DNA of 12,945 nucleotides from Candidatus Heimdallarchaeota archaeon B3_Heim (GTDB lineage: Archaea; Asgardarchaeota; Heimdallarchaeia; Hodarchaeales; Hodarchaeaceae): the NCBI GenBank assembly GCA_003144275.1, contig NJBF01000067.1, forward strand, positions 1 to 12,945. The letters run 5' to 3'. Under the pieces are notes generated by a model that was not told where the DNA came from, did no database searches, and saw only the letters and a program-made list of their open reading frames with translations. Every line of letters starts with the position of its first letter. Position 1 is the stretch's first letter. A program made the position numbers and the translations under genes. This document shows positions 620 through 12,945 of the stretch, one piece after another.

Positions 620-670
620 ATGAAAAATCGTAAAAAGAACGGCCAGTATACTGGTTCATTGCTTGGCTAA
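620..670 (+). CDS. Small 16-aa basic peptide MKNRKKNGQYTGSLLG; putative precursor/scaffold peptide of the cluster
   Basis: ATG 620 to TAA 670 with a weak SD (GGA at 610-612). Not in the ORF track. Lys/Arg-rich N-terminus, followed by a hairpin and then CgnB/E-like genes. Confidence 0.6.
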   Translation: MKNRKKNGQYTGSLLG

Positions 671-691
671 TTTCAGTTAGTTAGTACAAGC

Positions 692-726
692 TGAGGTCGG
701 CTTTGCCCGGCCTCAATTAGTTTTTT
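692..726 (+). terminator. GC-rich hairpin plus offset T-tract downstream of the small ORF (leaky terminator or mRNA-stabilising stem)
   Basis: TGAGGTCGG (692-700), loop CTTTGC, CCGGCCTCA (707-715): 9-bp stem with one G-U pair, then ATTAG and TTTTTT (721-726). Confidence 0.6.
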
Positions 727-828
727 AATTTTAGGTTGTTACATTGGTATGTAGTTGCAACAGTCTTAGCGTCTACACATCTTTGTACCATCTTAGATTT
801 TTTAGCCTCACAACAATAAAGGGATGTT

Positions 829-1917
829 ATGAAAACGATCATTGTTAACCCTGATGATATTGTTTCATTGGGAGACGATGGGGCAGAGGGTTTTTATTTA
901 GTAACCAACACTCCTTACTTAGAAAACTTTTCTCTAGGTGCGTCAAATAAGTATAAACACACTGAAATATTGTCTTGCGATGCTCAAGACAATTTCATCG
1001 AAAAAGTTCTTGGCAATATTCCAGAATCTAGCTGTGTATTAACCATAATGCCTGATTGCCTTGTAAAATCTGTTCCCTCAGAAGTACTAGGTAAGCGAAA
1101 ACTCCTAATTATGGCTTGCAGATCCGGTAAAACAGGGTTAGACGGAATCGAGCATTTTCTCAACTGCACCGCAAACTTCGATATAGATAGACAAATTGAG
1201 GCTGGCGAATCTTTTTTTGACAAAGGAGAGAAAAGTCAGTATCTCGAACTCGTAAATCATCGGCAAGGTGCAAGTTGTCGCTTTGAACATTTGAATGAAA
1301 TATATGAATGGCATGAGCAATATGGTCGTGTTGAGTGGAATGAACAGCAAGTCTTCCCATCAGGTGAGATTGCTTGCTTTTTAGTTCCTTTGTATATCGA
1401 AAAATTGTCTGAAAACACTAGGTTTGATTTGAATGGTGAAATCATTATGGAAGGTCCAGTCATTGTTCAATCTGGTCCACCATCTTTCCAACTAAAAGAC
1501 CAACTTAACATCCACGATGCACTGACAACTGAAGAAGGAAGTGGTGTAAAGCTCACAATCAAAAGTGGGGAAATTATAAAACATGAACCGGTCAATGAAT
1601 CAGGACAAAAAGCGGCAGATATGTTGTCAAGCTTGTTCGCTGTCGACTCACGCTTTCGGACGATATATGAAGTTGGATTTTCGCTCAATGAATCAATAAA
1701 ACTATGGCCGGGGAACACAGCGATGAATGAAATTTGGGGTGGTTCAGGTGGTCGGCTTCATCTAGGTCTAGGTATGCTTCCTCATACTCAATATCATATA
1801 GATGCCTTTTGCGCAAACACTCAAGTTAAAACAGATTCAGGTGAAGTCATATTTGGGCCTAGAGCTAAAAGCATGAATAGAAGGAAAAGCTCTCATTGTC
1901 CATGTGTAGAATTATAG
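829..1917 (+). CDS. M29/leucyl-aminopeptidase-fold metalloprotein, CgnB/CgnE-like, paralog 1 (362 aa)
   Basis: SD AAAGGGA upstream. Motifs WHEQ..PSGEI, YEVGFSLN, AMNE, LHLGLG and HID correspond to the Glu/Glu/Glu/His/His/Asp metal ligands of the M29 fold. Extra C-terminal tail MNRRKSSHCPCVEL. Confidence 0.75.
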   Translation: MKTIIVNPDDIVSLGDDGAEGFYLVTNTPYLENFSLGASNKYKHTEILSCDAQDNFIEKVLGNIPESSCVLTIMPDCLVKSVPSEVLGKRKLLIMACRSGKTGLDGIEHFLNCTANFDIDRQIEAGESFFDKGEKSQYLELVNHRQGASCRFEHLNEIYEWHEQYGRVEWNEQQVFPSGEIACFLVPLYIEKLSENTRFDLNGEIIMEGPVIVQSGPPSFQLKDQLNIHDALTTEEGSGVKLTIKSGEIIKHEPVNESGQKAADMLSSLFAVDSRFRTIYEVGFSLNESIKLWPGNTAMNEIWGGSGGRLHLGLGMLPHTQYHIDAFCANTQVKTDSGEVIFGPRAKSMNRRKSSHCPCVEL

Positions 1918-2961
1918 GTGCAAGGGATTATGACATTTCAATTAGACGTATCAAAATTAGATAATTTTGGAGAGATCTCGGGAGCAGATTTCATCTTGGT
2001 GACAACTGATGAACTCGCTAGCAAACTAGATTTAGTGGATACAAAAAAAGCTTACTCATCGCTTATTAAAGAATGTGTGACAAACTACAACCAATTTGAA
2101 GAAGCGCTTAGCTCCAAATTTCCAGAAAAAGCTCACATCTTGGTAGTTTTACCGTCAATATATGTAGCTTCCCCTCCCCCTGAAGTTTTAGGTAAGTACC
2201 GCAAACTTGCAACACTTGCGTGTTTTTCTACCCCCACTTCAATTGAGTCGATATTTCATTTTCTTGAGCAGGCAACACGCACAGATTCTGCCATGCAAGA
2301 AAAGATTGCAGATCGCTTTTTCGAAGTAGGTGAATCTGCGAAACACATCAAATTTGTAAACGAAGAATATGGAACTTCAGCAGTATTTAAACATTTAAGT
2401 GATGACCTTACATGGCATGAGCAAATTGGGAAGCTAGATTGGGGAGAGCAACAACTACTGCCTTCTGGAGAGGTAAGTACTCTTCCTGTATCTGTCTTCG
2501 GTGAAGATATAAAATCAAAATTGGACCTGAATGGTGAAATCCTATTGAAAGGGCAACCTGTTTTACATGCTGGCAACGTGTCCTTTTTGAGAAAAGATCA
2601 AGACCGAATTTTTAATGCTCTCAACTCAATAACTGAACATCCCCTAAAACTTGAAGTTAAACAAGGAGAGATCCAACACGTTACTGCAATCAGCTCAAAA
2701 GGAAAGGGTTCAGCTGATATGCTGAACGCATTATTCGATGTTGACTCTCGATTTAGGACTATCATCGAATTAGGCTTTGGAATAAATACAAATCTTGAAT
2801 TGTTTCCCGGAAATCAAGCAATGAACGAGGTGTACGGAGGAAAATCAGGGGTAATTCATTATGGAATAGGCCTTTTGCCCTTTACACAATACCACATTGA
2901 CTTTATTTGTCCTGATACCAGAGTTATGGATAACAATGGAATTCCTCTAGTGGGCGAATAA
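1918..2961 (+). CDS. M29/leucyl-aminopeptidase-fold metalloprotein, CgnB/CgnE-like, paralog 2 (likely true start ATG 1930)
   Basis: Same motif series: WHEQ..PSGEV, IELGFGIN, AMNE, IHYGIG, HID. Aligns block-wise with 829-1917 (DLNGEI, DMLxxLFxVDSRFRTI). SD AAGGGA precedes ATG 1930. Confidence 0.75.
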   Translation: MQGIMTFQLDVSKLDNFGEISGADFILVTTDELASKLDLVDTKKAYSSLIKECVTNYNQFEEALSSKFPEKAHILVVLPSIYVASPPPEVLGKYRKLATLACFSTPTSIESIFHFLEQATRTDSAMQEKIADRFFEVGESAKHIKFVNEEYGTSAVFKHLSDDLTWHEQIGKLDWGEQQLLPSGEVSTLPVSVFGEDIKSKLDLNGEILLKGQPVLHAGNVSFLRKDQDRIFNALNSITEHPLKLEVKQGEIQHVTAISSKGKGSADMLNALFDVDSRFRTIIELGFGINTNLELFPGNQAMNEVYGGKSGVIHYGIGLLPFTQYHIDFICPDTRVMDNNGIPLVGE

Positions 2962-2962
2962 A

Positions 2963-4135
2963 ATGGAATACGAATTAGAGCAAGAGATTAACAATTACAA
3001 ATCATACTTCGATTTAGATGGTTATCATTATCTAAACTGCGCATACATGGGCCCCTTGGCTACTTCGACCAAAAATGAAGGAATTGCCGCAATAGAAAGA
3101 AAAACTAACCCCAAATATGTAACGAAAGAACATTTTTTTTGCCATTCCACCGAAATTAGGCAACGTTTTTCTAAGCTTATTAACGAAGACGAGCCGAGTT
3201 CAATAGCAATAATCCCTTCCGTTTCCTACGGCATGTCGATAGTAGCTAATAATGTTGATATCCGGGAAGGTCAAAAAATCATTGTTGTCGCGGATGAGAT
3301 GCCTTCGAATTATTATATTTGGTATAGGTTAGCCAAAGAGAAACACGCAGAACTCGTTGTTATTGATAAACCATCCGATGCTAATGTTCGTTCAGATGAA
3401 TGGAATCAAACCATACTATCAACTATCTCCGATTCTACTGCGATTGTATCAATTCCAAATGTACATTGGTTAGATGGTTGCCTTTTTGATCTAGCTACTA
3501 TCAGCAAGAAGATACATGAACATGGAGGCCTGTTGATTGTCGACGGAACACAATCAATAGGAGCATATCCATTTGACAATAAGATAATCAGGGCCGATGC
3601 GGTTGTGTGTGCGGGATACAAATGGCTACTCGGTCCCTATGCTATTAGTATAGCTTACTTTTCTGAAAAGTTTTGGAAAGGCAAACCGCTTGAAGAAGGA
3701 TGGTTGAATAGAAAAAATAGCAACGATTTTGAATCTCTAACAAATTATCAGGATCAATATCGGGAGGGGGCGATCAGATTTGATATGGGTCAATCAAGTA
3801 ATTTTCTTAATGGTCCGATGTTAGCAGACTCTCTAAAAAATACTGAAATTTGGACCCCTTCAAAAGTGTCTGAACATTGTGCTTCGCTGAATAGCTTATT
3901 GGTGCAAGAATTATGTGATGTGCCGATTAAAGTATTAGCTGAAGATCAGAGAGGGCCTCATTATGTTGGTTTAGAAATAGACCCAATACTCTTGGAAAAA
4001 ATCGGACCTAAATTTTCAGACAACAACGTTTCTGCGTCAGTAAGAAACGGAAATATAAGAGTTACTCCGCACATATATAATGATATCGAGGATATCAAAG
4101 CTCTCGTTAAAGTTGTAAGAAGTTCTTTAAAATAG
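2963..4135 (+). CDS. Aminotransferase class-V fold PLP-dependent enzyme (lyase/epimerase-like; probably not a cysteine desulfurase)
   Basis: YLNCAYMGP, VDGTQSIG, PLP-lysine motif CAGYKWLLGP (K220, codon 3620-3622) and RVTPHIYN. No Cys in the segment before RVTPH. Starts 1 nt after the previous stop. Confidence 0.85.
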   Translation: MEYELEQEINNYKSYFDLDGYHYLNCAYMGPLATSTKNEGIAAIERKTNPKYVTKEHFFCHSTEIRQRFSKLINEDEPSSIAIIPSVSYGMSIVANNVDIREGQKIIVVADEMPSNYYIWYRLAKEKHAELVVIDKPSDANVRSDEWNQTILSTISDSTAIVSIPNVHWLDGCLFDLATISKKIHEHGGLLIVDGTQSIGAYPFDNKIIRADAVVCAGYKWLLGPYAISIAYFSEKFWKGKPLEEGWLNRKNSNDFESLTNYQDQYREGAIRFDMGQSSNFLNGPMLADSLKNTEIWTPSKVSEHCASLNSLLVQELCDVPIKVLAEDQRGPHYVGLEIDPILLEKIGPKFSDNNVSASVRNGNIRVTPHIYNDIEDIKALVKVVRSSLK

Positions 4136-4212
4136 GTTTGTTAAAATTTTAACCTAGAGGCTTCTGGAATCATTTTAGCACCAATTTTATAGGCAATTCT
4201 TAAAGTAAAACT

Positions 4213-6159
4213 TTGGACAATTTAATCGCGGCAAACATTATGGAAAAAAAAATCTTTGGCTCAGTTATTCCAGCGCCTAACCCAACCGGTGAATTGCATT
4301 TAGGGCACTTCCTCAACCTTTCGATTCAAGATCTTTTTTGTAGATGGCGGAGAACACAAGGTTGTGATATCAAATGGGCACTTGCATTAGATCATGGAGG
4401 TTCATCCACTGAATACGTTGCCACCAAGAACGATAAAAATTACATACAAAACTGCTCAGACAGAAAGTATATCTCAAATAAAATAACATCTTGGGTTGAC
4501 GGTATAACCCCAACAATACTCGAGCAGATAGATAAAATGAACTTGATCATTGATAGCGATGAGTTTAGATCTATGGCTGACAGTAAACGTGAGTATGAGT
4601 TTTTACAGTTCATTTCTCAAATGGCAAAAAGTGGAACAATATACAAAAGTGACCGTGTAATACCGTGGTGTACTGACAGACAATCTTTTGTAGATATTGC
4701 AGATATAGTGAAAAGTGAACATACAATTTACAAATATTCATTAATTTATAAAAGTGATGAAAACGAAAAGATAACTATAGATTCTGAAGACTTAAGTCTA
4801 TTGCTTAATGAAACAATAATTTTGATGTCAGAAGATTTTTATCAACGTTTACATGGTTCGCCTAAGTTTATTACAAACCCGCTCGGAGAAAATATAAAAA
4901 TAATTGTAAGTGATAAATTAATTTCCTTATTTTCTGGTAAAGAAATTGTAAGCATAACTCCGGGCCATTGTATTAATTCTTATTTCATATCTTTATATCT
5001 CAACGAAAAGATAAGTAGGGCTTTTAACGAAGGAGGCTATATTGAAAAAGAAGGTGAATACTTCAAAGTTCATAAGGAAGATGTAGAAAAAAGGCTATTA
5101 GAAGTTCTCCAATCTAGCAATCTTGTGAGTAAAATTCAGAAGTTAAATGTCATGGCAGATACATTTCGACTCAGTGGAAAGCGTGTCGAAAGTTTGCTTT
5201 CTAGGCAATGTTTCTTTGATGTCTCATCTCTAGCAAAAGATGCTTTAGAAAAAATAAGGAAAGGCACTGTCGATATAAAGCCTTCGCTATACAAACAAGC
5301 CTTAGAAAATTACTTAGAGGAACTTAACAAACCAGTCTTTCAATCTTTCAATGAGAGCGTATTTCTTAGAGATATTTGTATTTCTCAACAACTAGTATGT
5401 GGTACGGACTTTTCGTTAAAATCAGAAGAATTACGCTTCAAAGGAGACAAGTATCTTTTGGAAACCCAGATACCAAAAGAGGAAGTATACGTTGCAACAA
5501 TGAGGCTGTCTTGTGCTTTGTGGGCATTTTCGGCACAAATGGTATATGAAAAAGAACAAGCTAAATTAGAAAACTTAGGACAAAATAGTGTGTGTGTTAC
5601 AGGTATGGATCTGACAACGTTTTGGATTGCACCTATTTTGATGATGTCAGATGAAATTGGGTTCGCTCCATTTAAAACAGTTTACATACACCCTTTAATA
5701 ACCGATACAAAAGGTCGAAAAATGAGCAAGAGTTTTGGAAACACTGAAACTCCAGATACATTGATTGACAATTATGACGTTGATTCTGTAAGGCTATCAC
5801 TTTTCCTGTCCATAGATAACTCACTTCATAGGGTTATCGTAGACAAAAGTAAAATCGACTCAGTTCACCGCAACTTAAAAGATTTTAGAGAAAAGATTGT
5901 TTCTAAAACTACAGATAAGGAAAAATTCGAAATAGATTCATTAATAAATTCAAGTACAAAAGTAGTAAATGAATCTTTGCAAGTTAGCGATATACAAAGA
6001 GCTTCATCAGAAATAGAACAACTATTGAAAGCTGTAATAAGTAATCAAAACACCCTTTCAAAAAGACAAGTTTTTGATATTGCTAATGTGATAGAACCAT
6101 TTCTTCCTGAAACATCAGAATTTCTAAACCATAGCCTTGAATCTACATTAAAGGATTAG
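4213..6159 (+). CDS. Divergent, C-terminally shortened class Ia aminoacyl-tRNA synthetase paralog (ValRS-like); alternative start ATG 4240
   Basis: PNPTGELHLGH (HLGH 4297-4308) and GRKMSKSFGN (KMSKS 5719-5733). ValRS-like blocks LDHGG, ITPGH, ICISQQL, LSCALW, VTGMD..FW and PFKTVY. About 140 aa follow KMSKS. Confidence 0.85.
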   Translation: MDNLIAANIMEKKIFGSVIPAPNPTGELHLGHFLNLSIQDLFCRWRRTQGCDIKWALALDHGGSSTEYVATKNDKNYIQNCSDRKYISNKITSWVDGITPTILEQIDKMNLIIDSDEFRSMADSKREYEFLQFISQMAKSGTIYKSDRVIPWCTDRQSFVDIADIVKSEHTIYKYSLIYKSDENEKITIDSEDLSLLLNETIILMSEDFYQRLHGSPKFITNPLGENIKIIVSDKLISLFSGKEIVSITPGHCINSYFISLYLNEKISRAFNEGGYIEKEGEYFKVHKEDVEKRLLEVLQSSNLVSKIQKLNVMADTFRLSGKRVESLLSRQCFFDVSSLAKDALEKIRKGTVDIKPSLYKQALENYLEELNKPVFQSFNESVFLRDICISQQLVCGTDFSLKSEELRFKGDKYLLETQIPKEEVYVATMRLSCALWAFSAQMVYEKEQAKLENLGQNSVCVTGMDLTTFWIAPILMMSDEIGFAPFKTVYIHPLITDTKGRKMSKSFGNTETPDTLIDNYDVDSVRLSLFLSIDNSLHRVIVDKSKIDSVHRNLKDFREKIVSKTTDKEKFEIDSLINSSTKVVNESLQVSDIQRASSEIEQLLKAVISNQNTLSKRQVFDIANVIEPFLPETSEFLNHSLESTLKD

Positions 6160-6162
6160 TAC

Positions 6163-7083
6163 ATGAAATGTTTTATTTCGGGCTTAAAATATGAAATCGG
6201 CGATATTTTTGATATAGATGAGCTTTTAGTGAGTCCTGAAGTTACTGAATCAGATATCAAAAGGTTTAGAAACCTTGGGTTAAAAAATTATTCAAAATAT
6301 GAAGGATCTCTAGCAAGCCTATATGTGAAGTCTATTTCAAGTTCAATTGAATCTAGCGGTTTCATACCAGAGTCAATTGACGCGGTTATTCCTAGTGTAA
6401 TGACAGACTCTACGCCTGAAGATGATATGGAAATGTGGAAGGCTCTACATCAGTCAGGTCTAAACTCTCCGGCGGTTTTTGGGCTAGGCTGTCAAGAGTC
6501 AGCAACATTTGGAGGGGCAATTGATTTAGCAAAGAATCTTGTCAAGTCAGGTTCTTATAAAAGAGTACTAATATTAGTTGGTGCCATACGTAATAGCATA
6601 AAAGATAGAGTTACTCTTGGAGGTGAGACTATAGTAAGTGACGGAGCAGCGAGCTGCATTGTTTCGGATCATCCTGCTCAGTTCGAAATACTATCAACAA
6701 AAGTCATATCGAACCCCAAAAAAGCAGCTTCTTACAAGAGCGACCTTAGTCATGGTTTCATGATTGATGAATCTATAAGAATGATATCGGAAATCTCGAA
6801 ACTCCTTTTAGGCGAAGCAAATTTAAAATCATGTGCTATAGATAAACTTTTTTGTACAAACGCCAATGACCCCATATATACAATGTTCTCGCACTTTTCA
6901 AATATTGACGATCATAAAGTTATTAAAGAAGGGCTTAGAAAATACGGTCATGTAAATTTATGCGATAACGCTGTAGATATCTCATCTAAAATGCAATCAG
7001 GCGGCATTTCAATGGGAGAGAACTTAATGCTGCTTAATTGGGCAAGAAACCTTTTTTCAGGTGTTTGTCTGAGATACCTATGA
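6163..7083 (+). CDS. 3-oxoacyl-ACP synthase III (FabH/thiolase-fold)-like protein with a non-canonical active site; probable carrier-protein-dependent acyltransferase
   Basis: FabH-like blocks IDAVI, FGLGCQESATFGGAIDLAKNLV, RVLILVG, SDGAASCIVS, LFCTNAN and YGHVNLCD. Ser113 sits at the usual Cys position, with TNAN for HQAN and GH for GN. Confidence 0.8.
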   Translation: MKCFISGLKYEIGDIFDIDELLVSPEVTESDIKRFRNLGLKNYSKYEGSLASLYVKSISSSIESSGFIPESIDAVIPSVMTDSTPEDDMEMWKALHQSGLNSPAVFGLGCQESATFGGAIDLAKNLVKSGSYKRVLILVGAIRNSIKDRVTLGGETIVSDGAASCIVSDHPAQFEILSTKVISNPKKAASYKSDLSHGFMIDESIRMISEISKLLLGEANLKSCAIDKLFCTNANDPIYTMFSHFSNIDDHKVIKEGLRKYGHVNLCDNAVDISSKMQSGGISMGENLMLLNWARNLFSGVCLRYL

Positions 7084-7086
7084 CTA

Positions 7087-7332
7087 TTGATAGGCTATGG
7101 AATTGATATGAAAAACGTGCTTAGAAATATTTTTAAAGAACATTTGAGTCAAAATAACATTAATGATACTTCGAATTTTTTTGACCTTGGGGGAGATTCA
7201 CTCTCAGCAGTCTTATTATTAATAAAAGTAGAAAAAGAAACTGGCATTAAAATACAAAATGAGCAGTTTTACGCAGAACCTACGATAAACGGCCTTACAG
7301 AAATATGTGAAAAAAAGAACGAAAATAAATAA
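7087..7332 (+). CDS. Stand-alone phosphopantetheine carrier protein (PCP/ACP); likely start ATG 7108
   Basis: NFFDLGGDSL (Ser codon 7198-7200) and FYAEPTINGL match the NRPS T-domain pattern FFxLGGxSL...FxxPTIxxL. Confidence 0.9.
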   Translation: MIGYGIDMKNVLRNIFKEHLSQNNINDTSNFFDLGGDSLSAVLLLIKVEKETGIKIQNEQFYAEPTINGLTEICEKKNENK

Positions 7333-7374
7333 AAATCCCCTAGGAATAATTACAAATGAATATATCAAACCTTT

Positions 7375-7398
7375 ATAGATTACGTAGCTATAATCTAT
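7375..7398. promoter_or_regulatory. Dyad ATAGATTA-N8-TAATCTAT, candidate operator upstream of the efflux genes
   Basis: Perfect 8-bp inverted repeat (7375-7382 and 7391-7398) in the 176-bp intergenic gap. Confidence 0.3.
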
Positions 7399-7508
7399 TA
7401 TGCCCACTTATATATACTTACATGGACAGTTCTTATGAAAGTAATTTTTTTAGAACAAATTTTTTACATCATTACGAAAACGCTGTTTCCTACTGGTAAT
7501 TTCTAAAA

Positions 7509-8534
7509 ATGAAATTTACTGCTACCAGAGTTTTTACTATATCTTCGATTCTTATAGCGGCTTTGGTATTTTTTTTGGCAGAACTTCCCAAAGAGCTTGA
7601 TTTATTTGAAAGGGTTGGGACTGATAATGCTTATGTCCATGGTCATCTCTTTCACATTGGCAGCCCAATTTCAGGAATTGTCGAAAAAGTATACGTTAGT
7701 GAATTTGATTCTATCAAAGAAGGTCAGTTACTAGTAAAACTATCTGATAAGGAGCTGATAGCTAGTTTGGAAAGAACAGTTTTGGAACTAGATGTGAATA
7801 ATCAAGCAATAATTTCTTTAGATTCTGATGAAGCTCTTCAAAAGAAGATACTTGAGCAAGCTCAATCAAACCTTAAAGGTCTAAAAGAGCTGTCCGAGAT
7901 AGTAAACAGGGAAAGAAGAAGGTCAGAAGAGTTATTTAAAAGTAACGCACTTGGACAGTCGGACTTTGATGCTGCCACATTTAGAGCCAAAGAGTTGGAA
8001 AATGAGATAAAAGATGTTAGCGCACAGATTGATATAGAGTCAGCAAAGCTACAGGTTATTTATAGCAGAAAAGCCATGTTAGTCGCAGAGGGGGAAGTTC
8101 TCAGGAAAAATATTGAAGTAAAAAAGTACAACATCAATAAACTTAACATAGTAGCACCATATGAAGGAACCATTGGTAGATTACATGTTCATAGTGGTTC
8201 TTGGGTTTCAGAGGGTGACAATGTTCTATCAATTGCTGACAGTTCTGCACTTTGGGTTGAAGCTAACTTTAAAGAGTCTCAATTATTAGAAATTTCAATT
8301 GGAGACGAAGTATACATTTATGTTGACGCTATCCCTGATAGGAAGCTCTTTGGTTCAGTAAAACAAATTTCTCCAGCAACAGCTTCAGAATTTAGTTTCC
8401 TGCCCTTGAGAAAAAACTCTGGGACTTTTACCAAAACTATACAGAGAGTGCCTGTCAAAATCTCAATTGATGAAGATAACTGGAAATCAAGACTTAGAAT
8501 AGGCATGTCAGTAGAAGTGGAACTTAACAGGTGA
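7509..8534 (+). CDS. HlyD/EmrA-family membrane fusion (periplasmic adaptor) protein
   Basis: N-terminal membrane anchor, TDNAYV, lipoyl-like motif ISGIVEKVYV...GQLLVKL, coiled coil, IVAPYEG, LWVEANFKESQL and FTKTIQRVPVKI. Confidence 0.92.
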   Translation: MKFTATRVFTISSILIAALVFFLAELPKELDLFERVGTDNAYVHGHLFHIGSPISGIVEKVYVSEFDSIKEGQLLVKLSDKELIASLERTVLELDVNNQAIISLDSDEALQKKILEQAQSNLKGLKELSEIVNRERRRSEELFKSNALGQSDFDAATFRAKELENEIKDVSAQIDIESAKLQVIYSRKAMLVAEGEVLRKNIEVKKYNINKLNIVAPYEGTIGRLHVHSGSWVSEGDNVLSIADSSALWVEANFKESQLLEISIGDEVYIYVDAIPDRKLFGSVKQISPATASEFSFLPLRKNSGTFTKTIQRVPVKISIDEDNWKSRLRIGMSVEVELNR

Positions 8535-10111
8535 CTTCGCATAATTCGAGTGACAATGAACCAATCATTACTTCGCTCAGACGTACGATTGGTTTTTTTT
8601 TCATCTTGTTAGGGATGTTTGCTGCATTTTTTGATACTTATGTTACTCTCTCCATCTTCCCTCAAATTAGCGCTTCTCTTGGGGCATCTATCGAAGAAGG
8701 AAGTCGAGTCCAGTCATCATACTTGATTGCTGAAGTACTAATGATTGGACTGAGCGGCTATCTGGTTAAAAGAATGTCTCTAGCTTTCGTATTCTCCGTA
8801 TCATCGATTTTATTTTCTGTAACAAGCTATTTATGCGCTCTAGCAACCAGCATTGATCAACTAACCGTGTGTAGGTTTATACAAGGCCTCGCGGGCGGCG
8901 CTATGATCCCAACAGCATTTTCTGCAATTTATATTCTTTACAACGCAGACAAACATGCATTAGTTGGTGCGATTGCTGGCGCAATAGGAACACTAGCCCC
9001 TACACTCGCTCCTTCATTCGGTGCATATGCCGCAGAAGTATATGACTGGCGAATCATCTTCTATATAAATATATTCCCTTTGATAATAGGTGGTTTCGTT
9101 GTCTATTTAGCTTTCAAATCCGAAACCAATAAGAATCGTCCAAAATCAGAGGAAACGTTCGACTACCAAAGTTTCTTGTTTCTAATAGCGTTTGTTTTTT
9201 TAATACACTATGTCATCGATAATGGGTTGGAAAAGGGTTGGCTCGAATCTCGGGGAATATTTATATCGATAATTTTTCTATTTTTCTTATGTGTTTCCTA
9301 CCTTAATTTTTTCAGCAGAATAAATAACCCTTTAATTGAATGGCGTGTTTTTAAGAGTCAATACTTCATGTTCGGTACGGTTGTGATTTTCTTTTTCAAC
9401 TTAATTCACATAACAACATCTTTTGTGATATCAAGCTATTTTGCTGATATTGCGGGTATGGGGTCGGAATATATTGGCAAAGTTTTGCTTATTGTAGGCG
9501 TGTTTCAAATTCTATGTTCACCGATAGCTCCCTATCTTGCAAGCAAGATAGGCTATGAGACAACGTTAATAACAGGTTTAGTAGTACTTTTTCTATCTAT
9601 TGCTATTGATATAAATATTACTGACGAGTGGACGATCAACGATTTTTTCTTTTCGCAAGCCCTTAGGGGCTGTGTTTTTATGATTATTGCAGTTTCAGCC
9701 CAAAATCTTGCTATGAGTATGCTTCCACGCGATTTGATTAGCGACGGGAGTACAGTAATGAATATGTTTAGGGCTTTAAGCGCAGGCATCGGCATCGCTG
9801 CTATTACTTCTTCGTTGTTGTATTGGAAAGATAAATATTATTCGGATACTACTATTTTCTTAGATTCTCAAAAAACAAATAACGCTTATCAATTCATCAA
9901 CAATTCTATAATTCGCTCCGAAAATCATATAACACCCATCGAAATAGAAAGATATATAGCATATCGGGTAGAAATAGATTCGTCAGTTTTGGCATATTCA
10001 AATACATTTTTTGGTTTAGCAGCCCTAACATTTTTATTATGCCTTTTTTCTGCGCTTTTCTTGATTTTCGTTAAAACGAAAAGTTTAAAGTCTGGCAAGG
10101 TACTTATCTAA
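8531..10111 (+). CDS. EmrB/QacA-subfamily (DHA2) MFS efflux transporter
   Basis: 526-aa polytopic hydrophobic protein with SYLIAEV, CRFIQGLAGGAMIP, PTLAPSFG and WRIIFYINI. GTG start overlaps the HlyD stop (GTGA). Confidence 0.92.
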   Translation: MTSHNSSDNEPIITSLRRTIGFFFILLGMFAAFFDTYVTLSIFPQISASLGASIEEGSRVQSSYLIAEVLMIGLSGYLVKRMSLAFVFSVSSILFSVTSYLCALATSIDQLTVCRFIQGLAGGAMIPTAFSAIYILYNADKHALVGAIAGAIGTLAPTLAPSFGAYAAEVYDWRIIFYINIFPLIIGGFVVYLAFKSETNKNRPKSEETFDYQSFLFLIAFVFLIHYVIDNGLEKGWLESRGIFISIIFLFFLCVSYLNFFSRINNPLIEWRVFKSQYFMFGTVVIFFFNLIHITTSFVISSYFADIAGMGSEYIGKVLLIVGVFQILCSPIAPYLASKIGYETTLITGLVVLFLSIAIDINITDEWTINDFFFSQALRGCVFMIIAVSAQNLAMSMLPRDLISDGSTVMNMFRALSAGIGIAAITSSLLYWKDKYYSDTTIFLDSQKTNNAYQFINNSIIRSENHITPIEIERYIAYRVEIDSSVLAYSNTFFGLAALTFLLCLFSALFLIFVKTKSLKSGKVLI

Positions 10112-10157
10112 CGTCTAAATTTACAGGTTTTATTTAGGGCTTTGAAGGATCAATAAA

Positions 10158-10583
10158 TTGAAATATTCTTCCAATTGTTCATGTGTCTGTGTGAAATTAG
10201 AACTCCAATTACCTCAAGTAATTGCATCTTACAACCCACGAGAGTGCGATTGTAGTTTTTGTAAGAAACGTAGTTTAAGATATCTTTCAGACAAATCAGG
10301 AAAGCTTGTCATTAGGACTGGCTTACAACTCTGTCAATCCAAGCAAGGATCCAAGCAGGCAAATTTTATCAGTTGTTCAAATTGTGGTGATGTGGTTGCT
10401 GTTACTTTCTCCTCACTTGAAGGATTGAAAGGGGCGGTCGTAGCAAATTTATTTGAAGAAAAATTCAAAATAGGTAAACCTATAAGTGTTTCACCTAAAC
10501 TGTTGACTCCAGAAGAAAAACGCATAAGGTGGACGTCGCTATGGCTAACAGTTGATATCCATGAGGATCAAGTTTTTGTTTGA
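10158..10583 (+). CDS. GFA/CENP-V (Mss4-like, aldehyde-activating) Zn-binding protein
   Basis: Cys pattern CSC...CDCSFC...CSNCG in 141 aa. TTG start 46 bp after the MFS stop. Confidence 0.8.
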   Translation: MKYSSNCSCVCVKLELQLPQVIASYNPRECDCSFCKKRSLRYLSDKSGKLVIRTGLQLCQSKQGSKQANFISCSNCGDVVAVTFSSLEGLKGAVVANLFEEKFKIGKPISVSPKLLTPEEKRIRWTSLWLTVDIHEDQVFV

Positions 10584-10621: not shown

Positions 10622-11455
10622 TCAGGACACTTTTCTTAAGGAACTTTGTTCATACTCTACTGGCGACAGATCACCATTAGCTGTATAAAGTCGTTCTAAG
10701 TTGTAATAGCGCATATACACTGTTACATCGTTTCTCATATGCTCACGAGTTGGCTGTGGCACTTTCAGCAACCAATCATGTTTTAAACTGCCGAAGAATC
10801 TTTCAACAACAGCGTTATCCCAACAGGATCCAACATCGCCCATGCTAGCTCTCATACCATAGTTAGCTAACAGTTTACGATAATGTTTGCTGGTATATTG
10901 TGACTCTCTGTCAGAGTGAAACACTAAGCCTTTTGGAGGCTGACGTAAGTTATAAGCTTTAATCATTGCCTTGCTAACCAAATCAGTCGTCATCCGCTTA
11001 TCAATATGCCAGCCGACGATACGGCGAGAGTATAAGTCCATCACAATGGCTAGATACATCCAGCCTTCGCCAGTTCTCAAGTACGTCACATCACCAGCCC
11101 ACACCTGATTGGGCGTAACAGGGTTAAAGTTCTGATTCAGCAGATTATCTGCAACAGCATCATTGTGTTTACGTTTGGTTGTCACCTTGTAAGCCACTCG
11201 TTGAGTCACTTCTAGACCAAGTATTGCCATTAATTTCTGAACGCCATAATCACTGACGCTAAAGCCCTCACTGAGTAACTTCTTTCTAAGCTCACGATAA
11301 CCTAAGCTATTTCGGCTTCTCTTAAATATAGCCTTGGCTCTTCGATACAAATTAAGCTGCTCAGCGGTGATGATTTTAGCTGGCCGTTTAAGCCAAGCGT
11401 AATAAGCACTGCGACTTACGTTCATAATTTTGCAGAGCTTAACTACGGGAAACAC
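10622..11455 (-). CDS. IS3-family transposase OrfB (DDE domain)
   Basis: PNQVWAGDVTY, YLAIVMDLYSRRIVGW, FHSDRESQY and WDNAVVERFFGSLK; all three D-D-E residues are present. Confidence 0.93.
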   Translation of the reverse strand: MFPVVKLCKIMNVSRSAYYAWLKRPAKIITAEQLNLYRRAKAIFKRSRNSLGYRELRKKLLSEGFSVSDYGVQKLMAILGLEVTQRVAYKVTTKRKHNDAVADNLLNQNFNPVTPNQVWAGDVTYLRTGEGWMYLAIVMDLYSRRIVGWHIDKRMTTDLVSKAMIKAYNLRQPPKGLVFHSDRESQYTSKHYRKLLANYGMRASMGDVGSCWDNAVVERFFGSLKHDWLLKVPQPTREHMRNDVTVYMRYYNLERLYTANGDLSPVEYEQSSLRKVS

Positions 11456-11484
11456 CGAAGATAACTGCTTAATCGTTTTAAACG

Positions 11485-11784
11485 TTACTTGGTTTCCTTT
11501 AGCAGGAGGGCGCTGGCCTTTTTTAAGACTTCTTTTTCCATCCTTAGCTCTTTATTTTCCTTGCGTAGCCTTAACAGCTCAGCTCGCTCATCTGAATTTG
11601 AACTGGCACCAGATTGCTCTGCTTCAACTTTAGCTTTCCAGTTATAAAGTAATTTATCTGTGATACCTAAAGACGCTGCTGCCTTTGGTACGCTATAGCC
11701 TTGCTCTGTTACTAATGCCACAGCTTCTTGTTTAAATTCTGCTGTGTAACTTCTGTTTGTTCGTTTTGTCATTTCACACCTCAA
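11485..11784 (-). CDS. IS3-family transposase OrfA (HTH)
   Basis: RSYTAEFKQEAVALV...AAASLGITDKLLYNW...ELLRLRKENKELRMEKEVLKKAS. The ATG of MTKR (11770-11772) may be the real start. Confidence 0.92.
   Translation of the reverse strand: MRCEMTKRTNRSYTAEFKQEAVALVTEQGYSVPKAAASLGITDKLLYNWKAKVEAEQSGASSNSDERAELLRLRKENKELRMEKEVLKKASALLLKETK
11518..11524 (-). promoter_or_regulatory. A AAA AAG programmed -1 ribosomal frameshift site of the IS3 element
   Basis: The minus strand reads TTA AAA AAG GCC in the orfA frame. The -1 frame (KKGQRPPAKGNQVTFKTIKQLSSVFP) is open into orfB. Confidence 0.8.
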
Positions 11785-12095
11785 TAATTGGATTATATTC
11801 CATTATTAAAGTGTCCTATTTAATTAAAGCAATTCAAAATACGCTTAAAAGATAACCGTCAATTTCCCTTGGTAATTAAGGACTACGACAAAATCGCGTG
11901 GTGTTAACAGCGGAAAAGAATTTAACTCAAATCTAATTTGTCGCTGAGACCGAAAAACTGGGTAACTGTCAGATCAAGTATGAGCTAATACATCTTAGGT
12001 TTTGGCATTAGCATTTTAGTGCTTATTTCCGCGATATTTACTTCTTTCGTTGATGATAATTTCATTTCCGAGGGCTTTAGGCTTGGCGATAGGCT

Positions 12096-12573
12096 TTGGA
12101 GAGACAACATGAGGCTAAGAAGTGTAAGATGCCGGACATAACAGTTACTTATTTAGAGCTGGGGCTGGAACAAAAGTGGAGTCCAGAACAAATAGCTGGC
12201 GTGGGTAAAATCGTCGGTCAGTTGGTAAGCCATGATTGGATTTATTGCTATTTACAACGCGATAAACTAACAGGTGGCAGACTTTATAAAAGGTTGCGTC
12301 ACGGTCGGCGTTAATACAGTAAAAGCAGTCGCGGGAAGCGTGTGATTAGTTCAAATCGCGTTGGCGAAGCGTGTCGCCCCGCTATCGTGAACAAGAAGAA
12401 ACGGTTCAGCAATTAGTAAGCCGATACAGTTTTAGGTAAGCAAGGAACATGCGCGATTGTCAGCCTTGTCGAGGGAAAAAGTAAACTATATCTGGTAAGG
12501 AAAAGTGTCAGCGAAAAGCGCGGCTGATGCCGCCAAGGCTATGGTTAGTATGCTGTGGAAATACCGGAGCCAC
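12096..12573 (+). pseudogene. Decayed, truncated IS30-family transposase fragment
   Basis: KWSPEQIAG...VSHDWIY...LYKRLRH, then stop 12312-12314, NRVG..RPAIVNKKKRF, SN**ADTVLGKQG (stops at 12414-12419 where GDWExDT is expected), a frameshift near 12500, and SAAD.AKAMVSMLWKY. Homology ends before the DNG motif. Confidence 0.85.
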
Positions 12574-12737
12574 TCTTCCACCTTTCTCGCTTGACGGCCT
12601 CGATTTAGATTTTGTGAGATGCTTCTATTTGTTGATGTATTGATAATGCCTCTGCTAAATCTAAGGCCGAGTTCTTTTTTGTTTAATTGATTACTTTTTT
12701 GATTGAACAGAGATTTAGTTGTCTGGCAAATAAATAA

Positions 12738-12792: not shown

Positions 12793-12945
12793 TTACAAAT
12801 TTTGCTCTGTAAACTGAGCCAGCGAGCTTCGCTCTACCTCGTCAAATATCAGGACACTCCCCTTATCATAATTACGATATACGTTAACTGCCGCTGTAGC
12901 TCCACTAGACGCGGGAGTTACAAACTTGTCGTCAATCTGAGCTAA
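12793..12945 (-). pseudogene. phoH: 3' end of the PhoH-like fragment
   Basis: Reads ...DKGSVLIFDEVERSSLAQFTEQNL* with TAA at 12793-12795, in frame with 128-391 when the ends are joined through the 127-bp overlap. Confidence 0.85.
12819..12945. repeat. Terminal direct repeat, right copy (identical to 1-127)
   Basis: Exact match to bases 1-127. Confidence 0.95.

Follow-up and report, generated by a model that had tools for sequence, protein, structure and literature searches.

The stretch of DNA under study, referred to throughout as the window, is a complete contig of 12,945 nucleotides (NJBF01000067.1; C73 in our numbering) in a genome bin of 3.95 Mb and 103 contigs, that of Candidatus Heimdallarchaeota archaeon B3_Heim. 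Between 620 and 10583 it carries ten genes, all on the + strand and co-directional, and all ten that had been listed in an initial annotation of the window are present. The cluster opens with a gene for a peptide of 16 residues, which is followed by genes for two paralogous metal proteins (P1 and P2), a pyridoxal phosphate (PLP) enzyme, a relative of valyl-tRNA synthetase (ValRS), a relative of FabH (ketoacyl synthase III, KAS-III), a carrier protein, two exporter components and a cysteine-rich protein. We consider it rather probable that these form a hybrid of ribosomal-peptide and carrier-protein biosynthesis that works by the steps proposed below, with the ValRS-like enzyme, the carrier protein and the FabH-like transferase probably adding an amino acid instead of the usual domains of a non-ribosomal peptide synthetase (NRPS). 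The features of the cluster are:

504-531, + strand: promoter-like site upstream of the peptide gene (consensus match, TTTACA-16-TAGTAT)
620-670, + strand: putative precursor or scaffold peptide gene, 16 residues, MKNRKKNGQYTGSLLG (from the calling of open reading frames, ORFs)
692-725, + strand: terminator-like hairpin and T-run directly 3' of the peptide gene (9-pair stem, 6 of the pairs G-C)
829-1917, + strand: P1, predicted CgnB/E-fold (M29-derived) metal protein, 362 residues (P2 paralogue, P1 clade, metal ligands)
1918-2961, + strand: P2, predicted CgnB/E-fold metal protein, 347 residues (fold search, precomputed PF26231)
2963-4135, + strand: class-V fold PLP enzyme (PF00266, 89.6 bits)
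4240-6159, + strand: candidate truncated ValRS-like class I adenylating enzyme, 639 residues (valS models; alternative TTG start at 4213)
6163-7083, + strand: candidate KAS-III-like acyltransferase, 306 residues (PF08545, 33.2 bits)
7108-7332, + strand: stand-alone NRPS-type carrier protein with a GGDSL motif (PF00550, 53.3 bits; alternative TTG start at 7087)
7509-8534, + strand: EmrA-type membrane-fusion (periplasmic adaptor) protein (HlyD_D23 and HlyD_3 matches)
8531-10111, + strand: EmrB-type DHA2 efflux permease of the major facilitator superfamily (MFS) (TIGR00711, 253.6 bits)
10158-10583, + strand: Cys-rich GFA-like protein, 141 residues, a recurrent accessory of the family (homology to genes of a metagenome contig, L013, and of Nostoc and Noviherbaspirillum)

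The tight spacing that had been described for these genes holds at most junctions, with the EmrA-like and EmrB-like genes sharing a GTGA overlap, but the gaps of 0 and 3 nt depend upon rare GTG or TTG starts. For P2 the gene callers favour an ATG at 1930 (343 residues), which makes the gap 12 nt and not 0, and for the carrier protein both the gene callers and a homologue on another contig (L011) favour the ATG at 7108, which makes it 24 nt and not 3.

The peptide gene is the feature that ties the window to a larger family. It was followed in all loci with a homologue of P1 or P2, these being several metagenome contigs and 80 genomic loci (one genome per species). In 77 of the 80 genomic loci there is a very short ORF that ends in Y-[T/L]-G-[S/T]-L-L-G-stop, and two of the three that have none also have little or no sequence 5' of the gene. 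The loci that bear the peptide span at least seven phyla, and it is near-invariant in Cyanobacteria, Actinobacteria, Acidobacteria, Planctomycetota and Proteobacteria, in 1-7 tandem copies, each peptide of 16-18 residues having a basic N-terminus and a C-terminus of the form N-x-x-Y-[T/L]-G-[S/T]-L-L-G. The YTGSLLG type of peptide is known from 13 non-redundant loci. The form MKNRKKNG[Q/E]YTGSLLG is shared by this window, Nostoc (3-7 copies), Mastigocoleus, Cylindrospermum, Anabaena and Sessilibacter, and also by genome bins of Holophagae, Pyrinomonadaceae, Frankiaceae and Planctomycetota. Further forms are MKNRKKNAEYLGTLLG, found in Acinetobacter (3-4 copies), Paraburkholderia and others, MKKIKVQKNRNYLGTLLG, found in Streptomyces and Kitasatospora where it is located between both protein genes, and MKKVNKNGRYLGTLLG, a second type in Nostoc.

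The DNA that encodes these peptides varies far more in its synonymous positions than the peptide does. The YTGSLLG type exists in 20 distinct DNA versions, and the codon-pair differences between them comprise 1330 that are synonymous and 253 that are not. Residues 7-16 vary at the Q/E position only, and Leu14 is written with five codons and Leu15 with six. The metagenome contig L013 carries two tandem copies of the ORF upstream of its enzymes, both encoding MKNRKKNGEYTGSLLG, and the differences between the two are synonymous only. Judged by these patterns of substitution the 16-codon ORF is a real gene that is translated and under selection, not a chance ORF, since its product is near-fixed with mostly synonymous change. 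The suggestion of the initial annotation that it encodes a precursor or scaffold peptide is thus borne out as far as comparison goes, by near-identity across phyla, by synonymous change and by tandem copies. Neither the YTGSLLG nor the YLGTLLG motif was found in the literature searched, and both are absent from the supplementary lists of the paper on the biosynthesis of crocagin (PMC10070186).

There are also signs that the peptide is transcribed. Several marine studies have DNA runs that contain the stretch, and contigs at least 99% identical to it occur in four marine metatranscriptome runs. Contigs from three of these runs, belonging to two studies, begin at 546-554, just 3' of the promoter-like site, which is a weak hint of a transcription start downstream of the predicted promoter. 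One RNA contig covers 554-734 and ends right after the hairpin, others enter P1 (546-1200, 549-1132), and the hairpin at 692-725 is probably a partial, or leaky, terminator that allows a short peptide transcript as well as read-through into the enzyme genes. Where RNA contigs leave the cluster uncovered, this was not taken as a sign of silence.

P1 and P2 share 39% identity and were described in the initial annotation as a pair resembling CgnB and CgnE of crocagin biosynthesis, a likeness that was recovered by fold and by a precomputed domain match and not by sequence search. P1, P2 and a 34-sequence profile gave no useful match to PDB chains by sequence, and neither protein has a match in the local Pfam copy, where Peptidase_M29 gave none at E 0.01 or better; PF26231 is absent from that copy, so that the PF26231 (CgnE_B) match for P2 is a precomputed one, in agreement with the fold. 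The AlphaFold2 model of P2 has a mean predicted local distance difference test (pLDDT) of 94.8, and its best PDB matches by Foldseek are CgnE (6zsu) and CgnB (6zsv), at E of about 1e-13 and template-modelling (TM) scores of 0.58-0.70, with the M29-fold dioxygenase NicX next, and then M29 aminopeptidases (AmpS/PepS/AmpT, TM 0.32-0.49). The predicted fold of P1 and P2 is that of CgnB and CgnE, which is M29-derived. In the crocagin pathway a short precursor, which has a basic leader, is bound by CgnB and CgnE and handed to the dioxygenase CgnC (PMC10070186). Together with the co-occurrence of peptide and P genes in 77 of 80 loci, the modelled fold supports the proposal, made in the initial annotation, that such a pair would handle the peptide.

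All six metal ligands (EEEHHD) are retained in P1 and again in P2. In pairs of the YLGTLLG type the second copy has lost ligands (KEENAA, EEEHAT, EEEHAI), and a second copy with a broken metal site has been described in every duplicated pair examined (PMC10070186). The pair is old, since across phyla the P1 proteins make up one orthologous clade and the P2 proteins another. In a set of 1.84 billion representative proteins, clustering at 50% identity divides the family to which they belong into 221 clusters.

For the ValRS-like enzyme the initial annotation proposed that it stands in for an adenylation (A) domain and loads the carrier protein. It scores 254.6 bits with NF004349 (cut-off 704) and 229.8 with TIGR00422 (cut-off 612), is 639 residues long where a ValRS has about 860 or more, and aligns to residues 37-556 only of the Thermus thermophilus enzyme. 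HLGH and KMSKS motifs are present, the editing motif TPAHD has become TPGHC, and the anticodon-binding (PF08264) and C-terminal coiled-coil (PF10458) domains, which full-length relatives have, were not detected. Across the family of ValRS-like proteins HIGH, KMSKS and the aspartate that binds the alpha-amine (Asp51) are invariant. With adenylation motifs kept and the parts related to tRNA degraded, it looks like an active adenylating enzyme. The position of the tryptophan in the ValRS pocket is occupied by arginine in the clade of the window, and by inference the substrate need not be valine. The genome has a full-length ValRS-like frame of its own, of 991 residues.

Of the truncated type only nine clusters at 90% identity were found among 5.8 billion. 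Its neighbours recur. One contig (L011) has genes for the ValRS-like enzyme, the KAS-III-like protein and the carrier protein together, the last lying two genes downstream as it does in the window, and a further contig of 4,406 bp has the ValRS-like and KAS-III-like genes. L010 (JGI 3300039269) has, side by side, the nearest of the divergent relatives of the PLP enzyme (64%) and of the ValRS-like enzyme (51%). Convergent genes for PhyH, a carbamoyltransferase, TauD and a class I/II aminotransferase then follow on that contig, which ends just upstream of the PLP/ValRS-like pair. L012 (JGI 3300065074) bears a truncated ValRS-like gene that is more distantly related (32% identity), beside genes for a methyltransferase, an M20 peptidase, a B3_4 protein (the tRNA-binding type of the beta subunit of phenylalanyl-tRNA synthetase, PheRS) and an 833-residue protein with a faint match to the N-terminal part of LanB, as in peptide aminoacyl-tRNA ligases (PEARLs); it is possibly another pathway with a synthetase paralogue.

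The strongest available support for carrier-protein loading comes from a plasmid of a cyanobacterium, Cylindrospermum sp. NIES-4074 plasmid3 (AP018272.1). A protein of 1294 residues encoded there (L098:4565-8449) consists of a condensation (C) domain (17-450), a class I aminoacyl-tRNA synthetase (aaRS) core and a thiolation (T) domain (1178-1240), and it is encoded next to a RraA-like gene, the conserved peptide, P1, P2, the PLP enzyme and two ordinary NRPS genes. The aaRS part shares with the enzyme of the window the derived motifs PAPNPTGELH.GH and LSCALW, and it is circularly permuted, the KMSKS half standing before the HIGH/CP1 half, so that residues 378-539 of the window's enzyme correspond to 482-652 of the fusion and residues 6-369 to 781-1147. 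A synthetase core of the same lineage thus lies between C and T, where an NRPS module has its A domain. This fusion in a homologous cluster, with the KAS-III-like neighbour on two more contigs, one of them with a carrier protein, speaks for the proposed replacement of an A domain by a ValRS paralogue. A prediction of the complex of the ValRS-like enzyme and the carrier protein scored 0.01, which weighs neither for nor against binding. A search of the literature on ValRS paralogues with carrier proteins found nothing relevant.

The KAS-III-like protein matches PF08545 at 33.2 bits against a cut-off of 24, and a sequence search with it found FabH-type chains only. By sequence alignment to FabH alone, without structural superposition, the positions of the catalytic Cys, His and Asn of FabH are taken by Ser113, Thr232 and His263, with Asp268 five residues past the histidine. 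Only three members are known, each encoded beside a ValRS-like gene, and none of the four residues varies among them. Folds of KAS-III type that serve acyl transfer have comparable sites, DpsC having Ser-His-Asp and ChlB3 and CerJ having His-x4-Asp (PMC12664062, PMC9573744). The putative triad of Ser113, His263 and Asp268 matches an acyltransferase and not a condensing enzyme, in agreement with the role as a transferase that had been put forward for the protein. The carrier protein aligns with the carrier on L011 and with the T domain of the fusion, and its serine is kept (GGDSL against GGNSL and GGHSL).

The best SufS/CsdA-type score of the PLP enzyme is 77.6 bits against a cut-off of 475, and whilst the PLP lysine motif AGYKW is retained, the cysteine of the desulfurase loop is not conserved in seven members of the family. 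A cysteine desulfurase is ruled out by scores so far below the cut-offs and by the missing loop cysteine. Of the exporter components EmrB-like, a DHA2 permease of the 14-TMS type, reaches 253.6 bits with TIGR00711 (cut-off 230.2) and EmrA-like 182.6 bits with TIGR00998, below the cut-off of 390.8, and the pair stands in the window without a gene for an outer-membrane channel.

The last gene of the cluster had been called a GFA gene, a name that is weakly supported. Seven cysteines are invariant in the arrangement CxC...CxCxxC...CxxC, which is the GFA pattern. The protein of the window has no Pfam match, and two of its homologues reach only 20.8 and 21.9 bits with PF04828 (cut-off 24.3); its model (pLDDT 74) has weak fold matches to 3fac (E 2e-4), 8ajq and Gfa itself (1x6m, E 0.12). 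It is 27% identical (E 2e-8) to the product of a 143-residue gene 3' of the ValRS-like gene in L013, and homologues also occur in the Nostoc-type and Noviherbaspirillum loci.

On L013 the order of peptide (two copies), P1, P2, PLP enzyme, ValRS-like enzyme and GFA-like protein is the same as in the window, with identities of 51% for P1, 45% for P2, 45% for the PLP enzyme and 29% for the ValRS-like enzyme. The shared arrangement is not due to chance, because it recurs with enzymes that are only 27-51% identical.

The family as a whole falls into branches that differ in the company they keep. Among the 13 loci of the YTGSLLG type, 7 have the PLP enzyme, 5 a class I synthetase-like gene and 6 NRPS modules, with one or other of the last two in 9. 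The five synthetase loci are the window and L013, which have the ValRS-like enzyme, the fusion of Cylindrospermum, a Planctomycetota bin in which a LeuRS-like protein of 764 residues with its editing and anticodon-binding domains kept is encoded directly 3' of the P genes (L075:12183-14477), and a Frankiaceae bin with a 575-residue protein of the ArgRS catalytic domain in the same position (L019:5494-7221). NRPS modules and synthetase-like enzymes thus look interchangeable as activators. The 68 loci of the YLGTLLG type have no synthetase-like gene and no PLP gene, and weak matches to A or C domains in 4 only, whereas 59 of the 68 have a heme-oxygenase-like iron enzyme. In Streptomyces, Kitasatospora and other actinomycetes (L027-L095, for example L030:9857-16623) MKKIKVQKNRNYLGTLLG lies between two P genes, and in two annotated loci (L030, L083) a heme-oxygenase-like iron enzyme and a protein of 262-275 residues follow, with genes for an iron alcohol dehydrogenase and an aldehyde dehydrogenase nearby, and in L030 also DUF2817 and a serine dehydratase. 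The literature searched on heme-oxygenase-like enzymes with peptides that ribosomes make and that are modified after translation (RiPPs) held nothing relevant.

The smallest clusters are found in Sessilibacter corallicola, with peptide, P1, P2, PLP enzyme and an MFS protein, and in Acinetobacter (L015, L016) and Paraburkholderia azotifigens (L017), with MKNRKKNAEYLGTLLG in 1-4 tandem copies, only one P gene, whose product has its metal site intact, and then AzlC/AzlD. AzlC/AzlD belong to a family of exporters of branched-chain amino acids, and this minimal form suggests a small amino-acid-like product. These minimal clusters, taken with the pattern of association, indicate that the activation of amino acids is an add-on specific to the YTGSLLG branch.

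Within the genome of its host the cluster stands apart. The features that flank it are:

1-379, - strand: 3' part of a phoH-like gene, belonging to a 580-bp direct repeat of which this is the left copy (right copy from 12618)
10622-11784, - strand: IS3-family transposase genes flanking the cluster, orfB at 10622-11455 and orfA at 11485-11784 (NF033516, 306 bits; HTH_Tnp_1 orfA in L004)

The approximately 830 bases between the IS3 orfA and the right phoH repeat (11785-12617) contain only an ORF of 72 codons (12096-12314). Bases 1-127 of the window are identical to 12819-12945, and at 99.985% identity the window matches part of a scaffold of 16.5 kb from TARA Oceans (L004), on which direct repeats of 580 bp, 98.6% identical (1850-2429 and 14668-15247), bracket the cluster and the IS3 element. 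The repeat is the 3' part of a PIN-PhoH gene, the upstream copy being a phoH fragment of 123 residues, and the terminal identity of the contig arises because its 127 bp lie within this repeat. A 12.8-kb circle or plasmid is ruled out, the terminal 127 bp being a repeat artefact on a longer and otherwise collinear scaffold. Recombination of the two 580-bp repeats could excise a unit of 12.8 kb. The outer flanks of the scaffold were not found in the assembly of the bin, and the GC content of the contig (0.375, against 0.361 for the bin) shows a composition that is compatible; as composition is only compatible and the flanks are missing from the assembly, the assignment to a host rests on binning only. 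No member of the P family was found in 40 related genomes, 21 of them of the same genus. Given this absence, and that of the scaffold flanks from the bin, the cluster is a sporadic island and was probably acquired horizontally.

What is shown are the genes with their motifs, how strongly the peptide is conserved, the fold, the co-occurrence, the fusion and that the cluster is present in RNA libraries, whereas the chemical steps and their order, what the synthetase-like enzyme activates and what the GFA-like protein does are inferred. In the proposed scheme MKNRKKNGQYTGSLLG would be overproduced from its own promoter with a leaky terminator behind it, and P1 and P2, with their complete two-metal sites, would bind the invariant C-terminal part and process or modify it. 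The class-V PLP enzyme would work on the resulting amino-acid-like intermediate. An amino acid, not necessarily valine, would be adenylated by the ValRS-like enzyme and loaded onto the free-standing carrier protein, replacing an A domain, and the Ser/His/Asp KAS-III-like protein would then take the aminoacyl group off the carrier and pass it to an acceptor derived from the peptide, replacing a C domain, after which the product would be exported by EmrAB. The proposals made in the initial annotation are each supported by comparison. Beyond that annotation it is now apparent that the window is one variant within a large family defined by the peptide, and that the oxygenase partner of crocagin biosynthesis is absent.

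A wider reading, which we hold only tentatively, is that the peptide and its CgnB/E-fold partners make up a new, phylum-spanning class of ribosomal-peptide metabolites, with a core product that is conserved like a cofactor. In the YTGSLLG branch interchangeable modules would attach amino acids to this core, and amongst them would be class I (Val-, Leu- or Arg-type) aaRS cores in a role not recognised before, as surrogates of the A domain that load carrier proteins, either free-standing beside a FabH-like transferase, as in the window, or circularly permuted within an NRPS module, as in Cylindrospermum.

Several observations weigh against the hybrid system as proposed for the window. A phosphopantetheinyl transferase (PF01648) was not found in the 94%-complete bin, by a search that also missed it in 4 of 14 control genomes, so that this negative has no weight, and neither a counterpart of CgnC nor a dioxygenase domain was found in the window with Pfam and NCBIfam. 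Three of the loci with an aaRS-like gene (L013, L019, L075) have no adjacent gene for a carrier protein, so that carrier loading may not be general, and the minimal clusters of Sessilibacter and Acinetobacter need no activation of an amino acid at all. All members of the family are without an assigned product, and contigs from RNA libraries, upon which the case for transcription is built, can contain DNA.

The same parts can be arranged in another manner, and this is the main rival. As in the pearlins, the peptide could be a reusable scaffold that does not supply the atoms of the product, with an amino acid appended by the aaRS-like enzyme, or by the NRPS of other members, to its C-terminal glycine or to a side chain, tailored by the PLP enzyme and the GFA-like protein and released by P1 and P2. 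Such a scheme would explain why the whole peptide is conserved, as it is in TglA and other scaffolds of PEARL pathways (PMC9016710), and it suits both the variety of activators, ValRS-, LeuRS-, ArgRS-like and NRPS, that accompany one peptide and the peptidase descent of P1 and P2 with their metal sites retained. It is nevertheless unlikely, as the minimal clusters are without any ligase, release at the C-terminus needs a cut of carboxypeptidase type whereas M29 enzymes are aminopeptidases, and the carrier protein and transferase of the window favour transfer of a thioester over direct ligation. Readings that involve tRNA, resistance, signalling or attenuation are less likely. That the ValRS-like enzyme still works with tRNA, either to supply a dedicated aminoacyl-tRNA or as a drug-insensitive spare that protects the producer from a product inhibiting the synthetase, with the KAS-III-like protein and the carrier as a separate pair for acyl priming, seems to us improbable, even though its adenylation motifs are intact, the LeuRS-like protein of the Planctomycetota bin keeps its editing and anticodon-binding domains, and synthetase paralogues for resistance or for the supply of aminoacyl-tRNA are well known in antibiotic clusters (PMC2922099). 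Against it, the enzyme has 639 residues, with neither Anticodon_1 nor the coiled coil detected and the editing aspartate replaced, the genome has its own full-length ValRS-like frame of 991 residues, the lineage is also met inside an NRPS module beside a T domain, three types of synthetase with the same peptide fit a single drug target badly, and a search for tRNA genes in the window found none.

It is also conceivable that the peptide is a signal or a regulator. The M29-like proteins could trim it as the precursor of an exported pheromone, or it could be a leader peptide by which the operon is attenuated. In being short, with a basic N-terminus and a hydrophobic heptapeptide at the C-terminus, it resembles pheromone precursors of the SHP/XIP type, a terminator-like hairpin does lie 3' of the ORF, and exporters are always close by. 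Pheromones usually diversify, however, and this peptide is nearly fixed across phyla, it travels with PLP enzymes, oxidases, NRPS and aaRS-like enzymes, and attenuator peptides do not come in tandem 3-7 times each with its own start, all of which makes a signalling or attenuating role very improbable. A scan of the window against Rfam found no family at the gathering threshold, T-box and riboswitch families included. The hybrid system, in which peptide, synthetase-like enzyme, carrier and transferase work together, is the reading that we prefer.

The kinds of parts are already known, these being a RiPP-type precursor, the CgnB/E fold, a synthetase paralogue, a KAS-III-like transferase, a carrier and an efflux pump. 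No characterised cluster with this combination was found in the literature searched, as the initial annotation had supposed. Nor did the papers searched contain the family of peptides, a CgnB/E pair in which both metal sites are intact and the oxygenase partner is lacking, or a class I synthetase core at the position of an A domain. There is a substantial chance that the cluster offers a first view of a new class. If the proposed reading holds, a 16-residue peptide that has so far gone unannotated would serve as substrate to a biosynthetic family that is still uncharacterised, with hosts as varied as Streptomyces, Nostoc, Acinetobacter, Paraburkholderia, marine Gammaproteobacteria and several phyla for which there are only metagenomes, and its product could be found through expression of a cluster with four or five genes. 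Proteins of the CgnB/E fold would extend from one myxobacterial alkaloid pathway to a general module for handling peptides, and as both metal sites are kept without an oxygenase partner, the question is raised of whether P1 and P2 are themselves catalysts. A class I core that loads a carrier would be a new feed for non-ribosomal assembly and a new part for the engineering of pathways.

To our knowledge the loading of a carrier by a synthetase paralogue has so far been known only for the class II SerRS-like ligases. These amino acid:[carrier protein] ligases of Bradyrhizobium and Agrobacterium are reportedly synthetase paralogues without the module that binds tRNA. By analogy the enzyme of the window would share with them the aminoacylation of the phosphopantetheine arm of a small carrier that is encoded adjacently, and it differs in being of class I (ValRS-like) and in having kept a degraded CP1 editing domain. 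The PEARL and pearlin pathways, which lead to 3-thiaglutamate and the ammosamides, have in common with the window a conserved small peptide, chemistry that derives from amino acids and machinery derived from translation. There the enzymes are LanB-like users of aminoacyl-tRNA, whereas the synthetase-like enzyme of the window appears without the parts that bind tRNA, and no Lant_dehydr domain, as in LanB-like PEARLs, was found in the window with Pfam.

In rufomycin biosynthesis, where a ribosomal peptide supplies an NRPS building block, a tiny peptide and a protein of peptidase type (the BytA pentapeptide, RufO and the aminopeptidase RufB; bioRxiv 10.1101/2024.07.12.603347) are likewise combined with non-ribosomal activation, although a cytochrome P450 is found there and proteins of the CgnB/E fold here, and the peptide of the window has 16 residues and is conserved over its full length. 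DpsC, CerJ and ChlB3/ChlB6 use the KAS III fold for acyl transfer from or to a carrier and not for Claisen condensation (PMC12664062, PMC9573744). The protein of the window, which would belong with them by its nucleophile and by its His-x4-Asp at the position of the FabH asparagine, has serine as DpsC does, but the similarity is very low, the first histidine of FabH is threonine, and the presumed donor is an aminoacyl group and the acceptor derived from a peptide.

The nearest relative remains crocagin biosynthesis in Chondromyces crocatus, with its precursor CgnA, CgnB/CgnE and the dioxygenase CgnC (PMC10070186). The crocagin core ends in Tyr-Trp, and in candidate precursors of the crocagin type the Tyr and Trp positions are strongly conserved, whereas the peptide of the window ends YTGSLLG and is without tryptophan. 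The window is also without an oxygenase of CgnC type, the hydrolase CgnD, a methyltransferase and a carbamoyl- or glycosyltransferase, both of its P proteins have full metal sites where the second copies of crocagin type were always defective in the pairs examined (PMC10070186), and the similarity of P1 and P2 to CgnB/E lies below detection by phmmer or profile search. What the two systems share is the arrangement itself, a short peptide with a basic N-terminus encoded beside a tandem M29-derived pair, with CgnB/E as the best PDB fold match for P2 and with a tyrosine in the conserved C-terminal part of the peptide.

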